DNA of 64,000 nt, taken from NCBI GenBank assembly GCA_021787535.1, contig JAJYLR010000001.1:211648-275647 (forward strand). The letters run 5' to 3'. The position numbers and the translations under genes were made by a program. This stretch comes from a bacterium. GTDB lineage: Bacteria > Patescibacteriota > CPR2 > UBA1875 > JAJYID01. Positions 3,842-61,203 of the stretch are shown here, in pieces. Position 1 is the first letter of the stretch. The number at the start of each line of letters is the position of its first letter. The notes under the pieces were generated by a model. That model was not told the origin of the DNA and ran no database searches. It saw nothing but the letters and a program-made list of their open reading frames with translations.

Positions 3842-3869
3842 TTGTCATCCTGAACTTGATTCAGGATCC
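3842..3869. repeat. Hairpin repeat, minus orientation (TGTCATCC-ctgaacttgattcagg-ATCC)
   Basis: Inverted-repeat motif of the GAATGACA family. Forms an inverted pair with the element at 3882-3912. Confidence 0.6.
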
Positions 3870-3881
3870 AGATTTATTTAT

Positions 3882-3912
3882 ATAGATTCCGGATCAAGTC
3901 CGGAATGACAAA
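3882..3912. repeat. Hairpin repeat, plus orientation (ATAGATTCC-ggatcaagtccgg-AATGACAAA)
   Basis: Matches copies at 31671, 32367, 43202 and 50788. Lies immediately upstream of the argS start. Confidence 0.65.
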
Positions 3913-3917
3913 AAATT

Positions 3918-5594
3918 ATGAACGATGAACTGAAAAAATCTATTTATGAAGCGGTAAAAGCTCAGCAAAAAAGTTGCGGGTGCAGTTTTGATATTCCTGA
4001 AATCGAAATCGAAAATCCGAAAGATCCGAAGTTTGGGGATTTATCGACTAATATTGCGATGAAGATAGGCAAGATGCAGGGAAAGAATCCGATGGCGATT
4101 GCCGAGAATTTGGTGAAAGGACTGGATTCCCGCCTTCGCGGGAATGACAAAAAAGGGGGCCAGAATGATAAATTGGGCGGAATGATCAAGAAAGTGGAAG
4201 CGGTGAAGCCGGGATTTATCAATTTTTATTTCAGCCTTGATTATTATCAGGGAAAAGTTAGGGAAATTTTATCAGCTGGTCGAAAATATGCCGATTTAAG
4301 TATTGGAAAAGGGCAGAAGGTGCAGGTTGAGTTTATTTCGGCAAATCCAACCGGACCGCTGACGCTGGCAAACGGGCGAGGAGGTTTTAGCGGTGATGTC
4401 CTTGCTAATGTTTTCAAAAAAGCCGGGTTTAAAACTGAACGGGAATATTATGTCAATGACGGCGGAAATCAGGTAAAGGTTCTCGGGGATTCTATTTTAG
4501 CCGCAGCAAAACTAGTTCCTAACAAAGAAGATAATTACCGTGGCGATTACATTGAGAAATGGGCAAAAGAACATTATGGTGAATGTGCAGAGCTAAAAGA
4601 TAATTCATTTGAACTTGGCAAGATTGCCGCAAAAGATATTTTAGAAACCTTAATTCAGCCGGTTATTGGGAAAATGGGAATCGAGTTTGACAGCTGGTTT
4701 AGTGAAAAAGAGATGACCGGACGGGGTGAGGTAGATGAGACAATTCAGTTTTTAAAAGATAATCATCTGACAAAGTCTGAAGACGATGCTCTTTGGATGA
4801 AGACCACTGAGTTTGGTGACGACAAAAATCGGGTTTTGGTAAAAAAAGACTGTGAAAAGACATATTTTGCAAATGATATTGCCTATCACTACGACAAATT
4901 CGCGAAAAGGAAATTCGACAAAGTGATTGACCTCTGGGGTGCCGACCATCACGGTTATGTCGGTCGGATGCAGGCGGCTGTTGAAGCGATGGGCTTTGCC
5001 GGAAAGCTGGATATAGTGATTTTCCAAATGGTTCGACTCATAAAGGATGGTAAGGAATACAAGATGTCCAAGCGAAAGGGTACTTATGTGACCATAGATG
5101 AATTATTTGATCTCATTGGCATCAAAGATGCCGCCGATGTCGTCCGTTTCTTCTTCATTTCTAAGGGATTTGACACGCATATGGACTTTGATCTTGATCT
5201 TGCCAAAGACACTTCCGAGAAAAACCCGGTTTATTATGTGAAATATGCATCAGCTAGAGTGAATGGTATTTTGCGCAATGCAAAAGAAGATTTCTCTGCA
5301 GTAAATCTGAAATTAATTAAAGAACCGGCGGAACTTGACCTAATTAAAAAACTGTCAGAGTTGCCGGAGCTGGTAGAGCAAGTCGCCACCGATAAAAAAT
5401 ATCCGGTGCACAAGTTTACCTATTACATTACGGAAGTTGCGGAGAAATTCCACAGGTTCTATCACGACTGCAGGGTGATTTCGGACGACGCGGAACTAAC
5501 CAAAGCCAGATTGGCGCTTGTTGCCGCCACAAAGAATGTCCTGGAAATAACGGGAGAAGACATTCTCGGTATTGACATGCCGGAGAGGATGTAA
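3918..5594 (+). CDS. argS: Arginine--tRNA ligase
   Basis: 558 aa. HHGYVGRMQAAVEAMG and KMSKRKGTYVTIDEL (KMSKS-type) motifs. GFINFYF N-terminal motif. Confidence 0.9.
   Translation: MNDELKKSIYEAVKAQQKSCGCSFDIPEIEIENPKDPKFGDLSTNIAMKIGKMQGKNPMAIAENLVKGLDSRLRGNDKKGGQNDKLGGMIKKVEAVKPGFINFYFSLDYYQGKVREILSAGRKYADLSIGKGQKVQVEFISANPTGPLTLANGRGGFSGDVLANVFKKAGFKTEREYYVNDGGNQVKVLGDSILAAAKLVPNKEDNYRGDYIEKWAKEHYGECAELKDNSFELGKIAAKDILETLIQPVIGKMGIEFDSWFSEKEMTGRGEVDETIQFLKDNHLTKSEDDALWMKTTEFGDDKNRVLVKKDCEKTYFANDIAYHYDKFAKRKFDKVIDLWGADHHGYVGRMQAAVEAMGFAGKLDIVIFQMVRLIKDGKEYKMSKRKGTYVTIDELFDLIGIKDAADVVRFFFISKGFDTHMDFDLDLAKDTSEKNPVYYVKYASARVNGILRNAKEDFSAVNLKLIKEPAELDLIKKLSELPELVEQVATDKKYPVHKFTYYITEVAEKFHRFYHDCRVISDDAELTKARLALVAATKNVLEITGEDILGIDMPERM
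4124..4155. repeat. Hairpin repeat inserted in frame within argS (GGATTCC-cgccttcgcgg-GAATGACAAA)
   Basis: Same motif as intergenic copies. Encodes DSRLRGNDKKG in the ArgS frame. Degenerate gccagaatgat and ggcggaatgat follow at about 4158-4190. Confidence 0.6.
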
Positions 5595-10008: not shown

Positions 10009-13000
10009 ATGGAAGATTTGCTGAAGGGTTTGAATAAAGAGCAGAAGGAAGCCGTTACTCACGACAAGGGACCTCTCTTAATCGTGGCCGGAGCCGGGAC
10101 AGGGAAAACGACTGTTATCACTCGGCGGATCGCCTGGTTAATCGCGCAAAAGCTGGCGTTACCTTCTGAGATTCTAGCCCTCACTTTTACCGATAAAGCA
10201 GCCGGTGAGATGGAGGAGCGGGTCGACGAACTTGTGCCTTACGGATTCGTCGACACCTGGATATCCACTTTTCACGCTTTCGGCGATCGTATTTTGCGCG
10301 ATCATGCTCTTGATCTCGGACTGACGACCGATTTTCGGGTTTTGTCCAAGCCGGAGCAAGTGATTTTCATGCAAGACAATTTGGAAGCCTTTGATCTAAA
10401 ATATTTCTCGCCGCTTGGCAATCCGACCAAGCACATCGATGCGCTTCTCGGCCACTTCTCAAAGCTGAAAGATGAAATAATTTCACCGGCCGAGTATTTA
10501 GGGTTTGCCGATAAGAAATTAAAGTCGGCTCAGGATTCTGACGAAAAACTCGAAGCGGAGAAGACGTTAGAAATTGCCAGAGCTTACGAAAGGTATCAGG
10601 AGCTGATGGCGGAAGCCGGCAATCTCGACTTCGGCGACCAGATAAATATACTCATTCATTTATTGAAAACCCAGCCGGCGATCTTGAAAAAATACCAGAA
10701 GCAGTGCAAATACATCTTGGTCGATGAATTTCAGGACACAAACTACGCCCAGAACGAACTACTGAAGTTATTAGCCGGGGGAAAGGATTCTGGTCAAGCC
10801 AAAATGACCCACGCACCGCTTCAGGGTGCGGGGCAGGCACAGGGTGGCCACGGAAATATCACAGTGGTTGGTGATGATGACCAGTCGATTTACCGTTTCC
10901 GCGGCGCCGCCATTTCAAACATTTTGCAGTTCCCGAAAGATTACCCGAGATGCAAGCAAATAGTTCTAACGGAAAACTACCGTTCGACACAGGCGATTTT
11001 GGACAGCGCCTATAAATTAATAAAACACAACAATCCTGATCGTCTGGAAGTGAAGAATAATATTGTGAAGAAGCTGACTTCCAGGTTTGACGCCGACTCG
11101 GTTGAACCGATCCATTTGCATTCAGACACCCTGACTGCTGAGACGGACCGGGTGGCGAAAATGATCAAAGAATATTTCGACGAAGGCAGATATTCGTTCA
11201 AGGACTTCGCTATTCTCTCGCGGTCGCGCCGAAACGCGGAAGATTTCATTCACGCTCTAAACCATTACGGCATTCCTTATAAATTCTCAGGTTCTTCCGG
11301 CTTATATTCTAGAGCCGAAATCCGCTTGTTAATAAATTTCGCCAAGGTTTTAATTTCATCCGGTGACAATCTGGCCTTCTATCATTTAATTACATCAGAT
11401 GTTTATGGAATGAATGTGTCGGAGGCGGTGAAACTAAATGAAATCTCACAGAAAAACAAACGAAGTCTGAATGATGTGGCGAACGCAATTAACTTTTCAA
11501 AATCAAAATCTGACTGGATTCCCGCCTCCGCGGGAATGACAGACGAGGCAAGGGCAATTTTAGATAGGGCATTGAAGGATTTGAAAAATTTCCGCGAAGA
11601 ATCAAAGAAGCTGACCGCCGGACAGGTGATTTACATGTTTTTGAAAGAAACGGGGTATTTGTCAAAACTAGTGACGGAGTCCGAGAAGAGCGCGGAGGCG
11701 CAAGTGGCCATCCAGAATATCGCCAAGTTTTTTGAAAGAATCGGTGATTTTGAAAAAGTCTCGGAGGATAAAAGTATTGTGAACTTCGTCCGTCACTTGA
11801 AAGCTCTGATGGATGCCGGTGATGATCCGGCAATGGCCGAGGTCGATCCGGATCTTGAGGCGGTCAGTGTGCTTACGGTTCACTCGGCTAAAGGATTAGA
11901 GTTTCCGGTAGTGTTTGTGGTCTCGCTTGTCTCGGACAGCTTCCCGACTCGCAAACGCGCCGAACAGTTGCCGATTCCGGAGGAATTAATTAAAGAGTCT
12001 TTACCGGAGGGCGACTGGCACCTGCAAGAAGAGCGGCGGCTCTTCTACGTCGGCATGACCAGAGCCAAAGAAATTCTGTACCTAACGAGCGCCGAGGATT
12101 ATGGCGGAAAGAGGGCGCGCAAGGTTTCCCAGTTCGTTCTGGAGGCGATTGATAAGCCGGCTTCGGCGAAAGAAAAGGTGAAGCTTGATAAAGTTGAGGT
12201 GATCAAGAGGTTCAAAAAGCGCGATGAGATTGTAATTCCCAAGAAATTCTACGATGGCAAGGGACTCTTAACCCTAAATCCGCATCAGATAGATGACTAT
12301 CTGTCATGTCCGAAGAAGTTTGAATATATCCATATTCTGCGTGTGCCGATCATGACCCACCACTCGGTGGTCTATGGTTCGGCAATACATAAGGCGATTG
12401 AAGCGTATTTTGTAGCGAAAAAAGCCGGCAAAAAGGTCAGTTTGGATGATTTAATAGAAGTCTTTAGCGCAAATTGGCGAAGCGAGGGATTTATTACCCG
12501 CGAACACGAGGACAAAAGGTTTAATCAGGGGAAGAAATCGCTTGGTGAATTTTTCGCCAGAGAAGAAGGCAAGAAGCCGCCGGAGGAAGTGGAAGCGAAG
12601 TTTGAAATACCGCTAAAGGATCTCAATGTGAAAATTCGCGGCCGATTTGATGCAGTATATGTCAAATGTAAAACGGAAAATGTTAAATGTGAACAAACCG
12701 AAATCCGCGACTTTAAAACTTCAGAGGTTGAGAATCAAGAGCAAGCAGACAAAAAAGCCAAGACGAATAGGCAATTATCAGTTTACGCGCTGGCCAAGCA
12801 AACCGAAACAGGTATCATCCCGGAAGTGTCGCTTTATTTCGTCGATTCGGGGTTGGTTGGGAAGGTTCAAAAGAAAGAAAAAGATCTAGACAAGGTTCGC
12901 GGGGAAATTGAGAAAGTAGTCGAAGGGATTAAAAAGGAAAACTTCAAAGCTTCTCCCGGATTTGGTGAGTGTTCGCGCTGCGCCTACCGAGAGATTTGTC

Positions 13001-13020
13001 CGTTTACACTATCGAAATGA
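10009..13020 (+). CDS. UvrD/PcrA-family ATP-dependent DNA helicase fused to a C-terminal PD-(D/E)XK nuclease with a Cys cluster (AddA/AddB-Cas4-like)
   Basis: Walker A GAGTGKTTV, DEFQDTNYAQ, VVGDDDQSIYRFRGA. C-terminal RFDAVY...EIRDFKTS...QLSVYALA nuclease motifs plus CPKKF...CSRCAYREICP Fe-S-type cysteines. Confidence 0.85.
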   Translation: MEDLLKGLNKEQKEAVTHDKGPLLIVAGAGTGKTTVITRRIAWLIAQKLALPSEILALTFTDKAAGEMEERVDELVPYGFVDTWISTFHAFGDRILRDHALDLGLTTDFRVLSKPEQVIFMQDNLEAFDLKYFSPLGNPTKHIDALLGHFSKLKDEIISPAEYLGFADKKLKSAQDSDEKLEAEKTLEIARAYERYQELMAEAGNLDFGDQINILIHLLKTQPAILKKYQKQCKYILVDEFQDTNYAQNELLKLLAGGKDSGQAKMTHAPLQGAGQAQGGHGNITVVGDDDQSIYRFRGAAISNILQFPKDYPRCKQIVLTENYRSTQAILDSAYKLIKHNNPDRLEVKNNIVKKLTSRFDADSVEPIHLHSDTLTAETDRVAKMIKEYFDEGRYSFKDFAILSRSRRNAEDFIHALNHYGIPYKFSGSSGLYSRAEIRLLINFAKVLISSGDNLAFYHLITSDVYGMNVSEAVKLNEISQKNKRSLNDVANAINFSKSKSDWIPASAGMTDEARAILDRALKDLKNFREESKKLTAGQVIYMFLKETGYLSKLVTESEKSAEAQVAIQNIAKFFERIGDFEKVSEDKSIVNFVRHLKALMDAGDDPAMAEVDPDLEAVSVLTVHSAKGLEFPVVFVVSLVSDSFPTRKRAEQLPIPEELIKESLPEGDWHLQEERRLFYVGMTRAKEILYLTSAEDYGGKRARKVSQFVLEAIDKPASAKEKVKLDKVEVIKRFKKRDEIVIPKKFYDGKGLLTLNPHQIDDYLSCPKKFEYIHILRVPIMTHHSVVYGSAIHKAIEAYFVAKKAGKKVSLDDLIEVFSANWRSEGFITREHEDKRFNQGKKSLGEFFAREEGKKPPEEVEAKFEIPLKDLNVKIRGRFDAVYVKCKTENVKCEQTEIRDFKTSEVENQEQADKKAKTNRQLSVYALAKQTETGIIPEVSLYFVDSGLVGKVQKKEKDLDKVRGEIEKVVEGIKKENFKASPGFGECSRCAYREICPFTLSK
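10785..10833. repeat. Composite repeat in frame in the helicase gene (ggattctggtcaagccaaaatgac + ccacgcaccg..gtgcgggg hairpin)
   Basis: First half matches the 23271/30893/61144 family. Second half matches 32411-32437. Encodes DSGQAKMTHAPLQGAGQ just before the VVGDDDQ motif. Confidence 0.55.
11517..11546. repeat. Hairpin repeat in frame in the helicase gene (GGATTCC-cgcctccgcgg-GAATGACAGA)
   Basis: Near-identical to copies at 4124 and 61178. Encodes IPASAGMTD. Confidence 0.6.
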
Positions 13021-21173: not shown

Positions 21174-21965
21174 ATGGATAAATATATTAAAGATTTAGAT
21201 AAAATCCTTTCCGAAGAGTTTCTTTCATTAAAAAAAGAGATTAAGAGCCAAAAGCTCGGGGTTCTTTTTTCCGGAGGAGTAGACAGTTCCCTTATTGCCA
21301 GGTTAGGCGAAGATACCGGACTAAACCCCATTCTTTACAGTTTCGGAACCGAAAAATCCAAAGACAGGCAGTTTGTTTTTGACTTTGCGAGCGATATGAA
21401 AATGCCGCTTGTTTTTGAAGAGGTTAAAACCGGTGAGATTGAAAAAAATATTCCATTGATTAGAGAAGAACTGGCTAAAATCGGCGAGGACCCGAATCCT
21501 ATGCAAGTCGCTCTTGCAGTCGGAGTTTATCTGGTTGGGAAAAAGGCAAAAGCAGACAATGTTAAATTTATGCTGTGCGGGCAGGGGTCTGATGAGCTTT
21601 TTGCCGGATACAAGAAATATGAGGGGTTAAAAGACGATGATTTGCAAAAATCTTTGGAGCGCGACATTGAATCTGTAATGAGATCGGATATCGCCCGCGA
21701 TGCCCATATGCTATCGCTTTCCGGCATTAAACTTTTCGCGCCGTATACCAGCCAAGAATTTATCGACTATGCCCTGAAAATCCCGCTTGAATATAAAGTT
21801 TCGGGCGATACAAAAAAATTTATAATTCGCAAAGTCGCGGAAAAACGCGGACTCCCCGACTATATTTGCGAACGTCCTAAAAATGCCATGCAGTATTCAT
21901 CCGGAATCCAGAAAGTTGTCTCAAAAGTTTGTAAAGCGGAAAGGCAAAATGGACAAACTGCTTGA
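21174..21965 (+). CDS. Stand-alone asparagine synthetase C-terminal-domain-like PP-loop ATP pyrophosphatase (no glutaminase domain)
   Basis: PP-loop LFSGGVDSS and MLCGQGSDELFAGYKKY resemble the AsnB synthetase domain (SGGLDSS / GEGADELFGGY). 263 aa. Confidence 0.65.
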   Translation: MDKYIKDLDKILSEEFLSLKKEIKSQKLGVLFSGGVDSSLIARLGEDTGLNPILYSFGTEKSKDRQFVFDFASDMKMPLVFEEVKTGEIEKNIPLIREELAKIGEDPNPMQVALAVGVYLVGKKAKADNVKFMLCGQGSDELFAGYKKYEGLKDDDLQKSLERDIESVMRSDIARDAHMLSLSGIKLFAPYTSQEFIDYALKIPLEYKVSGDTKKFIIRKVAEKRGLPDYICERPKNAMQYSSGIQKVVSKVCKAERQNGQTA

Positions 21966-23658
21966 AAAAGTAATTCAAGAATCCATTGGCCGAAAAATAG
22001 TTTCAGATGAGGATTTTCTAACTTTAATTAAAGAAAATTTCAAAGGCAAGTCTGAGGCGAAGTTCCCCTCAAATATTGAAATAAGGAAGAAGTACCGGTG
22101 CATGGTTAATAGAGGGATAATACCGCCAAGTCCGGCGCTGGAAAAAATATTGGTTACCAAAAAGATGCGTTCTCTCTCCGGTGTGGCTGTTATCACGGTC
22201 TTGACCAAACCTTGGCCGTGTCCGGGCAAATGCCTGTATTGCCCGGTTCAGGAAAACGTGCCAAAGAGCTATCTTGCAAGCGAACCGGCAGTGATGAGAG
22301 CGATTTTGTGCGAGTACGATCCCTACAAACAGGTGAAAGCTCGGCTAGATTCACTGGCACTAGAAGGCCATCCGACTGACAAGATTGAACTCATTGTTAT
22401 CGGCGGGACATTTTCAGTGTTACCAAGAGATTATCAGGAAGAATACATAAAGTTATGCCTCGATGCATTGAACGGTACAAAAAGCAAAGATCTAAACAAG
22501 GCAAAAAGGGCAAATGAAACAGCCGAGCATCGTCTAGTCGGGCTGACACTCGAAACTCGGCCTGACTATATTACGAAAAAAGAAGTTGAGCGGATGAGAT
22601 ATCTTGGTACGACAAGAGTCGAGCTGGGTGTGCAGTCTGTTTTTGATGAAGTTCTAAAATTTAACAAACGTGGTGCGACTAATGAAGATACAATTTGTGC
22701 GACGCAACTTTTGAAGGATGCGGGACTAAAAATCTGCTACCATATGATGCCCGGACTGCCGGATTCGGATTTAAAAAAAGACCTGGAAATGTTTAAAGTT
22801 ATTTTTACTGATCCGAGATTTCAGCCGGATTACGTAAAGATTTATCCCTGTATGGTAACGAAGGGTTCAGAACTTTATGAGTTTTGGAAATCCGGAAAGT
22901 ATAGGCCTTACACCGACAAGGAATTAGAAAGTTTAATCTGCGAAATTAAAAAGACCGTGCCATATCAAGTGCGGATCATGCGGCTTATTCGCGATATCCC
23001 TTCCACAGATATTGAGGCAGGTTCAAAAGTGACAAATTTACGGCAAAACGTGCAAAAGAAATTACAATCAGAAGGGGTGAGGTGTAAATGTATCCGCTGT
23101 CGGGAAGCGGGATTATTAAAGAAAGATGAAAAAGTAAAAAGTAAAAATTTCTCCTTTGTCATCCCGAGCGACTTCGCGGAGCGACGAGTCGAGGGATCCC
23201 TTCCAGAAAATGATCAATTCCTAATCTCTAATGGCCAATCAATCTCCAATGATCAAAAATCAAGAAGAATGGATTCTGGGCAAGCCAGAATGACATTGTT
23301 GCGTGATGAGTATGAGGCGAGTGGCGGAAAGGAATTTTTTTTGAGTTACGAGACGGGGGATAGAAGTGTCCTGTCCGCTCTTTTACGCTTAAGATTACCC
23401 GGCGAAACGTATTTGCCGGAGTTAAAAGATGCGGCTCTAATCCGCGAAGTCCATACCTATGGCCAGCAGATCGAAATCGGCAAAAGGGGCGATACTCAGC
23501 ACAAAGGGTTGGGCAAAAAATTAATTACGAAAGCTGAGCAGTTGGCGTGCAAAAACGGTTACAAAAAAGCTGCCGTCATCTCCGGGGTCGGTGTCCGTGA
23601 TTATTACCGAAAACTTGGTTATGAACTTGATGGTGAGTATATGATCAAATTGTTATAA
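21946..23658 (+). CDS. elp3: Elp3-like tRNA uridine(34) carboxymethyl-modifying radical SAM / GNAT acetyltransferase
   Basis: Radical-SAM Cys cluster KPWPCPGKCLYCP. C-terminal GNAT region IREVHTYGQQIEIGKRGDTQHKGLGKKLITKAEQLA is typical of Elp3. The likely ATG at 21946 overlaps the upstream gene by 20 nt. The ORF-track start is 21883. Confidence 0.8.
   Translation, partial: KMDKLLEKVIQESIGRKIVSDEDFLTLIKENFKGKSEAKFPSNIEIRKKYRCMVNRGIIPPSPALEKILVTKKMRSLSGVAVITVLTKPWPCPGKCLYCPVQENVPKSYLASEPAVMRAILCEYDPYKQVKARLDSLALEGHPTDKIELIVIGGTFSVLPRDYQEEYIKLCLDALNGTKSKDLNKAKRANETAEHRLVGLTLETRPDYITKKEVERMRYLGTTRVELGVQSVFDEVLKFNKRGATNEDTICATQLLKDAGLKICYHMMPGLPDSDLKKDLEMFKVIFTDPRFQPDYVKIYPCMVTKGSELYEFWKSGKYRPYTDKELESLICEIKKTVPYQVRIMRLIRDIPSTDIEAGSKVTNLRQNVQKKLQSEGVRCKCIRCREAGLLKKDEKVKSKNFSFVIPSDFAERRVEGSLPENDQFLISNGQSISNDQKSRRMDSGQARMTLLRDEYEASGGKEFFLSYETGDRSVLSALLRLRLPGETYLPELKDAALIREVHTYGQQIEIGKRGDTQHKGLGKKLITKAEQLACKNGYKKAAVISGVGVRDYYRKLGYELDGEYMIKLL
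23155..23200. repeat. Hairpin repeat in frame within elp3, minus orientation (TGTCATCC-cgagcgacttcgcggagcgacgagtcgag-GGATCC)
   Basis: Flanking TGTCATCC/GGATCC as in the family at 3842 and 27068. Encodes FVIPSDFAERRVEGS in the linker between the radical-SAM and GNAT domains. Confidence 0.5.
23271..23298. repeat. Hairpin repeat in frame within elp3 (GGATTCTGG-gcaag-CCAGAATGACA)
   Basis: Matches copies at 30893, 61144 (reverse) and 10785. Encodes MDSGQARMTL. Confidence 0.55.
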
Positions 23659-27067: not shown

Positions 27068-27124
27068 TGTCATCCTGAACGTAGTGAAGGATCTAGAGAT
27101 TCTTCGTTTCACTCAGAATGACGG
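27068..27124. repeat. Inverted pair of hairpin repeats (TGTCATCCTGAAC...GGATC and GATTC...CAGAATGACG)
   Basis: Same architecture as the 3842/3882 and 50745/50788 pairs. Intergenic, just upstream of the MBL-fold gene. Confidence 0.55.
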
Positions 27125-30834: not shown

Positions 30835-30892
30835 CTGCTTAAGCAACCGAGCCATAAGGTGAAGTTGAATTTGAGGCCGTGCTTAATTATTG

Positions 30893-30920
30893 ATTCTGGC
30901 CAAGCCAGAATGACGAGGAT
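30893..30920. repeat. Hairpin repeat (GATTCTGG-ccaag-CCAGAATGACG)
   Basis: Matches 23271 and 61144. A second palindrome ttcggatatccga follows at about 30930-30945. Confidence 0.55.
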
Positions 30921-31645: not shown

Positions 31646-31670
31646 TTAGAAATTCAAATTATAGATTCCC

Positions 31671-31703
31671 GTCTTCGCGGGAATGACAAAAGGTAATTAT
31701 CAA
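31671..31703. repeat. Hairpin repeat (ATAGATTCC-cgtcttcgcgg-GAATGACAAA)
   Basis: Intergenic copy of the family. Confidence 0.65.
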
Positions 31704-31733: not shown

Positions 31734-32273
31734 TTAGTAGATATATTCGCGCGCTCTTAATATCAATACGCAACTTGCCGCATGAGTTATTTCAGAATTT
31801 TCCATCATTTGGAGAACCTTTTTAAATGGCATTTTTATAATCCTTATTGACTCACTATCATCGGGATTTGACCCGGTTCTCTCCAAATTTCTTGCGAGAA
31901 ACAAGTAATTTTTAGAGTTTATAGCCGATGTGAAGGGGTCTATAAATCCCAAATCTACCCATTTGTCTGCTTGAATCCCAATCTCTTCCTTTAACTCGCG
32001 CCTCGCAGCTTCAAGAGGGGTTTCGTTTTCTTCTATCCCGCCGCTTACAACCTCGACGGAGAATCTTTCGATGGCGTGTTTGTATTCTTCGATTAGATAG
32101 ACTTCATTGTCATCGTCTATTGCCAGAACTGAGGAGCCTGGTTTCATTTCGACTTTCGTAAAATCTTTTTCAAGCCCGCTCTCAAAAACTATTTTGTCAC
32201 TTTGAAGAGATAGTAGGGAATTTTTATAAATTATCTCGTTAGCTTTTATTTTATAAGGCGGTTTTTTAGTCAT
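31734..32273 (-). CDS. NUDIX hydrolase (ADP-ribose pyrophosphatase-like)
   Basis: Nudix box GGIEENETPLEAARRELKEEIGI. ATG at 32273. Confidence 0.75.
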   Translation of the reverse strand: MTKKPPYKIKANEIIYKNSLLSLQSDKIVFESGLEKDFTKVEMKPGSSVLAIDDDNEVYLIEEYKHAIERFSVEVVSGGIEENETPLEAARRELKEEIGIQADKWVDLGFIDPFTSAINSKNYLFLARNLERTGSNPDDSESIRIIKMPFKKVLQMMENSEITHAASCVLILRAREYIY

Positions 32274-32366
32274 GAACAAACTTTATCATAGATGTTGCAA
32301 ATTCTACATAATTTCTTATTGTCGTGCTTTGCAAAAATGCTTATAATTGAATGTAGAAATTATTAT

Positions 32367-32437
32367 ATAGATTCCCGCCTGCGCGGGAATGACAAAGGAT
32401 GGCGGGAATGACCCACGCACCGTTAGATGTGCGGGGC
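32367..32437. repeat. Composite repeat: ATAGATTCC-cgcctgcgcgg-GAATGACAAAGG followed by ggcgggaatgac + ccacgcaccg-ttagat-gtgcgggg
   Basis: Two family members fused. The second half is shared with 10805-10833. Confidence 0.6.
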
Positions 32438-32456
32438 AAGCAAGGAGTAGGATTTT

Positions 32457-38602: not shown

Positions 38603-38633
38603 TTTGTCATTCCCGCGCAGGCGGGAATCCAGC
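38603..38633. repeat. Hairpin repeat, minus orientation (TGTCATTCC-cgcgcaggcgg-GAATCCAG)
   Basis: Reverse complement of the GGATTCC...GAATGACA family. Confidence 0.65.
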
Positions 38634-50787: not shown

Positions 50788-50818
50788 GATGCCGGATCAA
50801 GTCCGGAATGACATAAAG
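50788..50818. repeat. Hairpin repeat (GATGCC-ggatcaagtccgg-AATGACATAA)
   Basis: Matches 3882 and 43202. Forms an inverted pair with 50745-50770. Confidence 0.6.
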
Positions 50819-51569: not shown

Positions 51570-51750
51570 TTACAAGCATTTGAATACAAAAAAGGAGGGG
51601 TAACAAATCTGGCAACAGATAAGTGTTGTTTTATGCGTTGAATTCAAAGCAAAAGAACTTTGAAAACTGAAAAGTAGAGAAAACAAAGTCACGTCAATTT
51701 GAACGAGTATCACAACTCAAATTATCAGGAAAGCTTGTCTTTCCACTTTT

Positions 51751-53282
<1,532 letters not shown>

Positions 53283-53535
53283 TAGGGAGATTACCGATTT
53301 ATCGGATTACTTCCAGGTCGAGTCCGTATTTATTACGGGCATGGACTGTGGCATTTTTCTCTACTTTCCAGATTTTCAAGGGTATAAAGAATTGATTTTC
53401 ATGCTAAAAACGGTTAAAATATTGTAGTGAAAAACCGTTTTTTGTTTTGTAAAATTTGAACATTGCCATTGATAATTTGTCTAGCATTCCTCTGCTACCA
53501 AACCAACAAGGATATTCGGATTTTGAATTTCATTT

Positions 53536-53613
53536 TGCGCGTGTAGCTCAGCTGGTTAGAGCGCCACACTGATAATGTGGAGGTCCCTGGTTCAAGTCCA
53601 GGCACGCGCACCA
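53536..53613 (+). tRNA. tRNA-Ile (anticodon GAT)
   Basis: Acceptor gcgcgtg/cacgcgc, anticodon stem ccaca/tgtgg with loop ctGATaa, T arm cctgg-ttcaagt-ccagg, CCA encoded. Confidence 0.85.
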
Positions 53614-53642
53614 TATCTAACATTTAAGATATAGGAGATGAG

Positions 53643-53882
53643 ATGGCATTATTACTAAGAATTGTCGTAAGTTTAGTGGTAATATTTATTGGAGTTGTTT
53701 TGCTTGCGAGGTCATATAAAGTTGTACATATGATCGGGACTAACAACTGGGCTGAACAGCATCTGGGATCGGGTGGAAGCTATACACTAGTAAAGCTCAT
53801 TGGTCTAGTATTTATCATTTTGGCTTTGCTGACAATGTTTGGTATCATTAAACCTTTTGACATAATATTTCCAAGCAAATAG
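53643..53882 (+). CDS. Small two-helix membrane protein encoded between tRNA-Ile and tRNA-Ala
   Basis: TAGGAGA RBS 6 nt upstream of the ATG. 79 aa with two hydrophobic helices. Confidence 0.5.
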   Translation: MALLLRIVVSLVVIFIGVVLLARSYKVVHMIGTNNWAEQHLGSGGSYTLVKLIGLVFIILALLTMFGIIKPFDIIFPSK

Positions 53883-53912
53883 AGACTAAAGTAATTTCAT
53901 TATTGAATTTAT

Positions 53913-53989
53913 GGGCCCGTAGCTCAGTTGGCTAGAGCGCCTCGTTTGCACCGAGGAGGTCGCAGGTTCGATTCCTGTCGGGTCCACCA
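53913..53989 (+). tRNA. tRNA-Ala (anticodon TGC)
   Basis: Acceptor gggcccg/cgggtcc with the G3:U70 alanine identity pair. Anticodon stem cctcg/cgagg with loop ttTGCac. CCA encoded. Confidence 0.85.
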
Positions 53990-54044: not shown

Positions 54045-55859
54045 ATGAATTTACGAAACGTAGCAATTATAGCTCACGTTGACCATGGCAAGACTACGCT
54101 TGTCGATGGTCTTTTAAAGCAGTCGAAAACCTTTCGCGAAAACGAGGCGGCTTTTTCTCAGGAGTTGATAATGGATTCAAACGATCAGGAGCGCGAACGC
54201 GGGATTACAATCCTCGCCAAAAACACAGCAGTCAAGTACGGCGACACAAAGATTAACATTATCGACACGCCGGGACACGCTGACTTTGGCGGAGAAGTTG
54301 AGAGAACTTTAAACATGGCAGACGGCGCTATCCTTGTCATTGACGCGCACGAAGGGCCGATGCCGCAAACCAAATTTGTTTTGAAAAAAGCGCTTGAGAT
54401 TGGTTTAAAGCCAATCGTGGTTATCAATAAAATAGACAAACAGAATGCTCAAATCGACAAGGTTATCAGTAAAACCCATGATCTTTTCCTGGATCTTGCC
54501 ACTGATGTCGATCAGCTTGAGTTTCCCATATATTATGCCATCGCCAGAGAAGGAAAAGCTTGGGAAAAGGCGCCTGGAAACATGGGCGAGAAAGCCGATC
54601 TGACTTGCATATTTGAGGCGATAGTAAATCACGTGCCGGCGCCGAAAGTTGAGGAAGGAACATTCCAAATACTCGTCACATCGCTTGAAAGCGACAGCTT
54701 CCAAGGTAAAAATGCTATCGGCAGGATAAAAAGAGGAAGCATTTCGCCCGGTAAAACCATTACATTAATCAAGAAAGACGGTACTACCGAGCAGGCCAGA
54801 GTCGATAAAGTTTATGTGGCCCAGGGCCTCAAAAAAATTGAAGTGTCCGAGGCGCCGGCCGGAGAAATCGTGGCTCTAACCGGGATCAAGAATGCCGGCA
54901 TCGGCGACACGCTGGCAGATAGTGACAATCCGGAAGCATTGCCAACTATTGAAATAGAAGAGCCGACGCTCAAAATGTCAGTTGCCGCCAACACTTCTCC
55001 TTTTGCCGGCAAGGAAGGCCAGTTTGTAACCGGGCGTCAAATTTTGGAGAGGATCAAAAAGGAACTAGAAACAAACGTTTCCTTAAAAATGGAAATGGGA
55101 AATGCCGGCGACTACATATTATCCGGACGCGGCGAACTGCATTTGTCGGTATTTATCGAGACGCTTAGGCGCGAAGGATATGAGCTTGAAGTAGGCAAAC
55201 CCCAGGTGATTACAAAAGAAATAGACGGTGTGAAATGCGAGCCAATGGAAGAACTGACTATTGACGTGGTAACCGAGCACGTCGGTGCGGTGACGGCAGA
55301 GATTGGCAGGCGAAAAGGCGTTCTTCTAAGCCAAGAGGAAAACTCGGACGGCACAACAAGATTGGTATTTGGAATATCTACTCGGGGAATTTTAGGTTTA
55401 AGGAATCAATTACTTACACTTTCCCGTGGAACAGCCATAATGAACTCAATTTTCACCAAGTTTCAGCCGGCCGGAGCCGCTATACCCAAGTTGCGAAACG
55501 GGGTACTTATTGCCAGCGAGTCGGGCAAAGCTGTGGCATATGGGCTAAACAATGCCCAAGGGAGAGGCATAGTTTTTATCAAACCTCAAACTCAGGTGTA
55601 TGAAGGTATGATAGTCGGGCTAAATTCCCGCGAGGGCGACTTGGAAATTAATGTGACCAAAGAAAAGAAGCTGACAAATGTGCGAGCATCAAGTTCTGAT
55701 GAAGCGCTGATCTTGACTCCGCCGACGATATTTACCCTTGAACAATCACTGGATTTCCTGGAGGATGATGAACTCCTTGAAGTAACTCCAAAGAACTTGA
55801 GGCTCCGTAAGAAAATCCTCAACAAAACCGCCAGAAAAAGATCGGGTATGAAAGTTTAG
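54045..55859 (+). CDS. typA: Translational GTPase TypA/BipA
   Basis: [33 protein letters not shown]-domain motifs. 604 aa with EF-G-like domain architecture. Confidence 0.9.
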
Positions 55860-61143: not shown

Positions 61144-61167
61144 GTCATTCTGGCTTGGCCAGAATCA
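61144..61167. repeat. Hairpin repeat, minus orientation (CGTCATTCTGG-cttgg-CCAGAATC)
   Basis: Reverse complement of the 30893 copy. Confidence 0.55.
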
Positions 61168-61177
61168 AAGATTGGCT

Positions 61178-61203
61178 GGATTCCCGCCTTCGCGGGAATG
61201 ACA
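61178..61203. repeat. Hairpin repeat (GGATTCC-cgccttcgcgg-GAATGACAAA)
   Basis: Identical core to the in-frame copy at 4124. Confidence 0.65.

Follow-up and report, generated by a model that had tools for sequence, protein, structure and literature searches.

The gene at positions 10009-13020 of a 64,000-nt stretch of contig JAJYLR010000001.1 (this whole stretch is called the window below) encodes a UvrD-type helicase fused to a nuclease, and two segments of its reading frame resemble short hairpin repeats that also occur between the genes of the window. An initial annotation had read them as members of two repeat families inserted in frame. This raised the question of whether mobile repeats had indeed entered an existing gene or whether the segments are old parts of the enzyme, and of how such elements might spread and be tolerated. 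We found that their sequence, translation and family membership were as annotated, and that they are very probably repeats of the repetitive extragenic palindromic (REP) class, carrying a CGTC/GTCAT tag, that inserted in frame.

Results

Two repeat-derived segments in an intact helicase-nuclease

The protein encoded by 10009-13020 matched the structures of PcrA and UvrD (E 1e-90) and contained the Pfam domains UvrD-helicase, UvrD_C and PDDEXK_1. Its open reading frame (ORF) was uninterrupted and every helicase and nuclease motif was kept. A database search returned an identical protein (P0001) on a 635,771-nt contig, and orthologs with 71-83% identity that spanned 958 to 1109 residues. Ortholog proteins are cited below by P numbers and loci by L numbers.

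The first segment, insert 1, joins a unit of family B to a hairpin of family C (Table 1). The sequence CCACGCACCGCTTCAGGGTGCGGGG (10809-10833) directly follows GGATTCTGGTCAAGCCAAAATGAC, and both units, together with 18 further bases, read D260-SGQAKMTHAPLQGAGQAQGGHG-282. The initial annotation had placed this composite (10785-10833) directly before a conserved helicase motif, and indeed the peptide ends at residue 282 and is followed immediately by motif III, N283-ITVVGDDDQSIYRFRG (NITVVGDDDQSIYRFRG). The B unit had two stem mismatches and its fold was no better than that of shuffled sequences (z -0.9). The C hairpin folded moderately better than shuffles (DNA fold of -9.7 kcal/mol, z -2.3).

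The second segment, insert 2 (about 11491-11540), consists of a spacer module and a hairpin of family A, and adds about 14 codons in comparison with orthologs. The hairpin reads W503-IPASAGMT-D512 in the helicase, and on the minus strand TGTC-ATTCCCGC-GGAG-GCGGGAAT-CCA. Its stem was perfectly paired, with a DNA fold of -10.6 kcal/mol (z -5.1 versus shuffles). The IPASAGMT reading and the assignment to a repeat family had been annotated correctly, but the bounds of 11517-11546 needed revision, the unit being 11516-11540 and the insert including the upstream spacer.

Membership in the repeat families of the window

Family A (GGATTCCCGCCTNCGCGGGAATGAC) was present in six copies and family B (GGATTCTGGNCAAGCCAGAATGAC) in four, counted at up to 3 mismatches in the window, when none was expected for either family (100 shuffles). 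Furthermore, family A accounted for all of the most over-represented 11-mers in the window. The helicase inserts matched intergenic copies at 22-25 of 25 nucleotides. Family A is built of a stem ATTCCCGC, a 4-nt loop (GAAG, GCAG or GGAG), the complementary arm GCGGGAAT and a CCA tail, and its tag strand reads TGTC-ATTCCC in all six copies. Family B has an 8-bp stem, ATTCTGGC, and a 3-nt loop; its copies are tagged CGTC (30891, 61144), TGTC (23271) or GGTC (10785).

Besides the copy in the helicase, the window contained one other copy of family C (32413-32443), which has the same junction, AATGAC-CCACGCACCG..GTGCGGGG-CARGCA. This intergenic site (32390-32437) had been annotated as showing the same pairing of B and C as insert 1. 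That claim did not hold, since the partner of C there is half an A unit (gcgggaatgac) and only the junction between AATGAC and C is shared. Three further C copies were found in the ortholog locus L164, all of them after TGAC, so that each of the five copies seen (two in the window, three in L164) abuts this motif. Family C is best described as an accessory hairpin, restricted to this lineage, with its docking point at the TGAC end.

A search of Rfam found no family for these hairpins, its matches in the window being confined to 16S rRNA and tRNAs.

Family A is a known class of repeat

The CGTC-tagged REPs described by Di Nocera, De Gregorio and Rocco (2013, PMC3733652) include a family, CGTC-1, that combines an 8-bp stem starting with AT and a loop of 4 nt with a CCA tail; its tag is often TGTC. 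CGTC-1 comprises the dRS3 repeat of Neisseria and RPE-6 of Rickettsia conorii, and its members often form inverted dimers (PMC3733652). Family A has the AT-start stem, loop and tail of this family, and the unpaired tag, CGTC or often TGTC, stands at one end of the hairpins studied here. They are also multi-copy, dispersed and often arranged as inverted dimers, with doublets at 61144-61202, 3844-3909 and 27069-27122. Family B is a stem variant of the CGTC-1 class with the same tag.

The Neisseria unit has since been redefined as NTS, CGTCATTCCCGCGMAVGCGGGAATCYRG, and generalised to Ssn-related motifs (SRM) (Nat Commun 2025, PMC11893778). The window A copies read TGTCATTCCCGCG[A/C]AGGCGGGAATCCAG, which is close to NTS. 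The SRM pattern, HGTCWYN(0-2)YYVSBRHN(0-5)WNVSBRGN(0-2)RNCYNB, was matched by five of the six A copies, with 0.1 match expected.

We scanned 185,579 species genomes with the family A pattern GGATTCCCGC-N4-GCGGGAATGAC and obtained at least 120 loci from many phyla. Hosts among the matches listed were Proteobacteria, Chloroflexota, Bacteroidota, Planctomycetes, Nitrospirales, Parcubacteria, Saccharibacteria, a Nanoarchaeota bin and Neisseria lactamica. Neighbouring A pairs among the matches listed were inverted with tags outward in 47 cases, versus 4 inverted with tags inward and 8 direct.

Taken together, these comparisons indicate that family A is not new: it is the CGTC-1 REP, the dRS3/NTS repeat of Neisseria, the Ssn-related motif and RPE-6 of Rickettsia. 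In-frame insertion of such repeats is likewise already in the literature, UvrD/Rep helicases included. Intragenic CGTC REPs lie in frame in UvrD/Rep helicases, RecB, UvrA/B, PolI and tRNA synthetases, and a supplementary table lists the peptides that they encode, among them DSRLRGND, VIPAKAGI and PASAGMT (PA.AGMT) (PMC3733652). A full-text literature search for the repeat-derived peptides had given no match, yet the peptides do stand in that supplementary table.

Both segments were inserted into permissive loops

Both helicase segments are repeat copies whose insertion into permissive loops is lineage-specific. In an alignment of 115 helicase sequences, the interval that holds insert 1 (site 1, L255 to N283) comprised 29 residues in the window protein versus 6-7 in 107 of the sequences, all distant orthologs included, and it was longer only in P0001-4, P0006, P0051, P0071 and one other. 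Ortholog DNA at the empty site reads GCG TCA AAA AGT GGC AAT. The alignment with PcrA (1PJR) broke exactly at insert 1, query residues 256 to 283 corresponding to PcrA 240 to 245, and was gapped by 11 residues at insert 2. An AlphaFold (AF2) model of the helicase (mean predicted local distance difference test score, pLDDT, of 85.4) represented insert 1 as coil, with pLDDT below 50 for residues 261-279, between helix 246-256 and strand 283-289, and insert 2 as a low-confidence coil (497-511) between helices 487-496 and 512-531. These results place the inserts in loops between the helicase motifs. The flanks of both inserts were collinear with the orthologs.

Conservation of the segments in orthologs free of the repeats had been named in the initial annotation as an argument against insertion; it was not found. 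Apart from the short site 1 of 107 sequences, none of the four sites described in the next section is filled in locus L002 (22.9 kb of a 428-kb contig), and this locus lacks canonical copies of A, B and a further hairpin, D. Its only repeat-like unit is one old B-like hairpin in argS, the gene of arginyl-tRNA synthetase.

Hot spots with turnover and nesting

Four sites of the helicase were filled recurrently, at about residues 172-181 (site 0), 257-282 (site 1), 495-511 (site 2) and 886-897 (site 3), by different elements in different orthologs. Even the sisters P0002 and P0003 (100% bootstrap) contained unrelated inserts of 58 and 53 residues at site 1. In P0005, site 1 consists of C, a hairpin, a B-like unit and C, and the B-C junction is common with the window. 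Hairpins split by, or nested in, other palindromes were seen at site 2 of L003 and site 0 of L164.

The inserts are built of modules. A recurrent composite is made of a GTCAT-tagged left hairpin, a CCAAT-rich spacer, a second spacer (AAATTTCAAAAAT.AAAA..GACT) and a right A or B hairpin ending in ..ATGAC. The composite was found in the elp3-like gene of the window (23158-23294) and at site 0 of P0002, and insert 2 represents its right part. The second spacer stands upstream of A or B hairpins at site 2 of L001, site 0 of L003, site 1 of L005 and in the window elp3.

Site 2 is naturally variable in length, with 12-52 residues across the orthologs (median 25). At this site a 29-nt unit, GACTGGATTCCCGCCTCCGCGGGAATGACA, was identical and at the same codon position in the window (11512-11540) and in L001 (11571-11599, P0006). 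These two proteins belong to different clades, their helicase flanks being only 57-69% identical around the shared unit, and P0004, which is closer to the window than P0006, lacks it. A recombination tract was considered as the cause, but sliding identity showed none. The subfamily with a CTCC loop is common in the clade: it occurs twice in L001, twice in L164 (once at helicase site 3 and once outside the gene) and once in the window.

At site 3, in the nuclease domain, the window protein has a loop of 7 additional residues (12664-12690, VKCKTENVKC) that is common only to P0002 and P0003. The segment KCKTENVKC was considered as another repeat copy and rejected, its sequence being unique in the window. 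The same loop elsewhere contains D- or A-type hairpins (P0004, P0012, P0015, P0005) or low-complexity runs (P0028, P0030, P0034).

Turnover was also apparent in argS. Orthologs of this gene, including that of the repeat-poor L002, have a B-like hairpin (DSGLGQND) at the spot where the window gene has an A unit, and this A unit appears to have replaced the 5' half of the older hairpin. The elp3 composite is common to the window and L005 and is absent from the elp3 of L006. Two further repeat-derived inserts were observed in the elp3 of L005.

Reading frames and depletion from coding sequence

The B copy in elp3 (23271, read as DSGQARMT) shares its frame with the helicase copy, as had been annotated, and this had been taken as a sign of frame-constrained tolerance. 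We rejected frame constraint as a signal. Each of the families A and B can be read through in five of the six frames, the closed one being due to the TGA within GAATGAC, and several frames are used. Helicase orthologs read B as DSGQA[K/R]MT and as GFW.SQND (GFWTSQND in P0007), and A as IPASAGMT, as DSRLRGND and, in reverse, as VIPAKAGIQ. With B thus occurring there in both of its open forward frames, the frame shared with elp3 amounts to a 1-in-2 event.

Genic copies are the minority. Only 4 of 15 compact tagged hairpins lay in ORFs, versus a coding fraction of 83% for the window (p 3e-6), which indicates that selection removes most genic insertions.

Other repeats and genes of the window

Table 1. 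Helicase-nuclease gene, its two inserts and other repeat-derived features of the window
Feature	Position	Strand	Description
Host gene	10009..13020	+	UvrD-type superfamily 1 (SF1) helicase fused to PD-(D/E)XK nuclease (Cas4/AddB-like, 4-Cys); 1003 aa, ORF intact
Insert 1, whole	~10786..10851	+	~22 codons added (D260-H281); follows the helix behind motif II and precedes the strand of motif III
Family B unit of insert 1	10785..10808	+	GGATTCTGGTCAAGCCAAAATGAC, consensus GGATTCTGGCCAAGCCAGAATGAC; CGTC/GTCAT-tagged hairpin, decayed; reads DSGQAKMT
Family C hairpin of insert 1	10809..10839	+	CCACGCACCG-N6-GTGCGGGG followed by CAGGCA; abuts the ...AATGAC end of the B unit; reads HAPLQGAGQA
Spacer module of insert 2	11491..11515	+	AACTTTTCAAAATCAAAATCTGACT, companion of A/B hairpins in composites; reads NFSKSKSD
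Family A unit of insert 2	11516..11540	+	GGATTCCCGCCTCCGCGGGAATGAC, intact hairpin; reads (W)IPASAGMT; helicase 2B-domain loop
argS insert	4124..4190	+	Family A unit and incomplete 3' halves of B type, inserted in frame in argS (3918-5594), N-terminal domain of arginyl-tRNA synthetase; reads LDSRLRGNDKKGGQNDKLGGM
elp3 composite	23158..23294	+	In frame in elp3-like radical SAM gene (~21946-23658), ~47 aa; D hairpin (GTCATCCCGAGCG..CGAGGGATCC), CCAAT-rich spacer, B hairpin; GTCAT tags outward
Family B copy	30891..30914	+	Intergenic
Family A copy	31663..31687	+	Intergenic, 3' side of NUDIX gene
Array	32369..32443	+	Intergenic; A unit, AAAGGATG, half A unit (32402-32412), C hairpin (32413-32437), then CAAGCA
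Family A copy	38606..38630	-	Intergenic
Inverted doublet	61144..61202	.	Intergenic; B(-) then A(+), tags outward (GTCAT.. ..ATGAC)

Further GTCAT-tagged stem variants, mostly doublets with tags outward, were observed in the window (3844-3909, 27069-27122 and 50789-50812) and in relatives (L001 4532-4622 and 6701-6762, L006 4933-4998, L005 13893-13963); their stems are ATCCTGAA, ATTCCGGA and ATTCTGAA. The position of the doublet between smpB and argS is conserved across relatives. The strand carrying the GTCAT tag, which would be the Ssn-cleavable one, is the minus strand in 8 of 10 A and B copies, a small number. Most genes of the window lie on the plus strand, and the GC skew is uniformly positive. 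A gene for a NUDIX hydrolase (31734-32279, minus strand) is bracketed by A copies of the same orientation (31663-31687 and 32369-32393), an arrangement that resembles NTS-gene-NTS in Neisseria.

A full-length 16S rRNA gene and then two tRNAs occupy 51747-53986, and a 604-residue ORF starts at 54045. With no 23S rRNA match in the remaining 10 kb of the window, the rRNA genes are apparently unlinked.

Among the helicase orthologs, P0005 (L164 10001-14590), P0014 and P0031, of 1353-1529 residues, contain a Hint domain/intein. In P0005, the only one mapped, the intein lies by alignment in motif III, right after VVGDDDQ, and its first residue is Cys. The helicase family is thus host to two kinds of in-frame parasite. 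Inteins resemble the hairpin repeats in this respect but are removed by protein splicing and occupy positions within conserved motifs, whereas the hairpin inserts, without a splicing domain, remain in the protein and sit in loops.

Discussion

The hairpins of the helicase gene and known repeat systems

The insertion of REPs in frame being already documented, the present finding mainly extends a known phenomenon to a compact-genome lineage resembling WS5. New are the host lineage, for which candidate division WS5 is the nearest relative with a name; the four recurrent hot spots with fast turnover and nesting, which provide a well-resolved series of states in one gene; and the identical 29-nt insert at the same codon position of two non-sister lineages.

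Family A shares with CGTC-1 the (C/T)GTC tag, the 8-bp AT-start stem, the 4-nt loop and the CCA tail. The hosts listed for CGTC REPs were Proteobacteria, Chlorobi, Bacteroidetes, Spirochaetes and Thermotogae (PMC3733652), in contrast to the WS5-like, small-genome candidate lineage studied here. Two other differences are the coexistence of several stem variants (ATTCCCGC, ATTCTGGC, ATCCTGAA, ATTCCGGA) and the repeated refilling of four sites of one gene. The likeness to NTS and SRM extends to the spread across phyla, as in PMC11893778. Yet about a quarter of the tagged hairpins are genic here, versus only 2% of NTS in N. meningitidis (PMC11893778), and neither the window nor the ortholog loci yielded an ssn gene.

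Rickettsia palindromic elements (RPEs) are selfish palindromes that lie in frame in housekeeping genes, at fold-compatible positions, in a reduced genome (Ogata et al. 2000, reviewed in PMC10969869), and all these features recur in the present case. The classic RPE-1 is about 100-150 bp long, has a conserved encoded peptide and is confined to Rickettsia (PMC10969869). The elements described here differ from it, being hairpins of 22-25 nt with modular spacers that form composites of up to about 137 nt and of variable content. Among the RPEs, only RPE-4 and RPE-6 are CGTC REPs (PMC3733652).

REPs are classically extragenic. The REPs that form bacterial interspersed mosaic elements (BIMEs) with REP-associated tyrosine transposases (RAYTs), and the doublets called REPINs, share with our hairpins the short tagged form, the inverted doublet as likely replicative unit, the mosaic clusters and a presumed single-stranded DNA (ssDNA) chemistry at the foot of the hairpin. 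They differ in that the tag here is GTCAT/CGTC and not GTAG, and no RAYT was found. A tblastn search of the window with a Y1 transposase gave no match. The only such enzyme seen was a TnpA of the IS200/IS605 type in L003 (6754-7173), about 2.4 kb downstream of the helicase ortholog. We rejected it as the mobilising enzyme: it is an ordinary IS200 (110 bits) whose end hairpins are of a different, unrelated kind, the window contains no homolog of it, and it scored below the RAYT cut-off (28 bits versus 80). The outward tags of the composites recall the terminal inverted repeats of a classical miniature inverted-repeat transposable element, a type that also shows target-site duplications and derives from a DDE insertion sequence. 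Comparisons of filled and empty sites gave no target-site duplication, and no parent insertion sequence was seen.

How the repeats may spread and persist

On the most probable reading, hairpin repeats spread through the WS5-like genome, and genic copies persist only if the insert is a multiple of three, falls in one of the five open frames and lands in a permissive loop. In the helicase, the turn before motif III and the loop of the 2B domain are such places; the inserts would be translated as filler that the model predicts to be disordered, and the enzyme, to judge by its sequence, stays intact. The sites are seen to be refilled, nested and replaced, in a pattern of hot spots with rapid turnover; as its cause, existing hairpins would act as landing pads.

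The small GIY-YIG nucleases called Ssn bind the NTS hairpin solely in its single-stranded form and cleave one strand a few nucleotides upstream, and the arrangement NTS-ssnA-NTS resembles an insertion sequence (PMC11893778). By analogy, dispersal of the hairpins could depend on an ssDNA process at the hairpin, with a cognate Ssn nuclease acting in the manner of an insertion sequence (NTS-ssn-NTS) on doublets with outward tags, and the hairpins of the window are putative targets of Ssn cleavage. We put this part forward tentatively, as a possibility towards which we incline somewhat less than against.

Several observations weigh against the proposal as a whole. No ssn (single-domain GIY-YIG, cd10448) or RAYT gene was detected in the window or across the roughly 100 kb of ortholog loci, the ssn search combining a motif scan with tblastn of two Ssn proteins (L043, L093) against the window and L001-L007. 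Comparison of filled and empty sites disclosed no target-site duplication or other insertion footprint. The A copy of the helicase misses the SRM pattern by one loop base, and B and C do not match it; neither does D, for its part. A scan for the C stem across metagenomes gave 36 matches, almost all of them chance occurrences in DNA of 60-80% GC and none with an AATGAC flank, indicating that C is not a widespread family. The identical 29-nt unit in non-sisters is not what simple random insertion would predict, and calls for target specificity or site-specific re-insertion, re-homogenisation against the family, or selection at the DNA level. Finally, translation of the inserts into protein is predicted from the ORF.

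Alternative explanations

A serious alternative for the turnover is recombination. Spread and turnover would then result mainly from gene conversion or template switching between hairpins that share GGATTC or GAATGAC microhomology, with no dedicated nuclease or transposase. This would explain why mosaic junctions lie exactly at shared motifs: in argS, a segment GGATTC-(A interior)...-GGGCCAGAATGAT replaces half of a B hairpin, and at site 1 the window and L006 share the 5' end GGATTCT and the 3' end GGTGGCCAC and differ inside. The 29-mer of site 2, fully identical between flanks of about 60-69% identity, is also what re-homogenisation against the family would produce. However, recombination leaves unexplained the first arrivals at empty sites, the strong bias for doublets with outward tags across phyla, and the cross-phylum conservation of an oriented tag that is read by a nuclease. 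As the main cause of both spread and turnover we consider it possible but rather doubtful.

It could also be that the intragenic hairpins are kept for a function, be it as Ssn targets that limit recombination or transformation of this repair gene, as pause sites for replication or transcription, or as flexible linkers that tune the helicase. The perfect pairing of the genic A hairpin and its identity in two lineages despite diverged flanks agree with this idea, as do the over-representation of intragenic REPs in replication and repair genes (PMC3733652) and the lowering of transformation by NTS-gene-NTS configurations in Neisseria (PMC11893778). Against it, insert content differs wholly between sisters, most orthologs have no insert, the B copy of the helicase is decaying and disorder is predicted for the insert peptides. 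Hairpins were only marginally enriched in the helicase gene over flanking DNA, 18 of 55 falling within 22% of the DNA (p 0.04), the detector giving false positives and the loci being centred on the gene. We regard a function of this kind as improbable. The natural length variation of site 2 would leave room for segments that are ancestral to the helicase and were lost elsewhere, the intergenic copies being coincidental or derived from the gene. This is extremely hard to reconcile with the invariant length of site 1 in nearly all orthologs, the distant ones included, with the near-identity of the inserts to intergenic copies and with the presence of family A in dozens of phyla, unrelated to the helicase gene. 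An assembly artefact (a chimera induced by repeats) or a decaying pseudogene is just as implausible. The assembly is of the metagenome type and repeats can mis-join contigs, but the ORF is uninterrupted with all helicase and nuclease motifs conserved, the flanks of the inserts are collinear with orthologs, two samples (L003 and L004) gave the same assembly of the insert-rich P0002, and inserts occur at the same sites in six independent assemblies.

Returning to the insertion of mobile hairpins as the preferred reading, a bolder version is that CGTC/SRM hairpins of these reduced genomes actively home to each other, new units entering preferentially at the TGAC tag or the loop of resident hairpins via ssDNA nicking by a GIY-YIG enzyme of the Ssn type. 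Self-homing would account for the constant position of C at TGAC, for nested hairpins and for the same 29-nt unit at one codon position in two non-sister lineages. We judge it unlikely. If true, it would be the first natural evidence of Ssn-NTS as a transposition or homing system, and it would mean a steady source of fast-evolving surface loops in essential proteins of minimal genomes.

Significance

The insertion of these hairpins explains odd peptides in proteins of uncultured bacteria, such as DSRLRGND, IPA.AGMT, VIPAKAGIQ, DSGQARMT and SSRA.AEGS, as well as the variation in length of up to about 150 residues among the helicase orthologs, intein-carrying ones excluded. Repeat-derived filler of this type should be recognised in annotation, alignment and structure prediction. 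The mobility of CGTC/SRM hairpins has been a question since 2013 and their link to Ssn nucleases is recent. With its four hot spots, and with close relatives in which sites are empty, filled once, nested or replaced, the helicase family is a compact natural series for the movement of these hairpins, and a useful lead on how they move.

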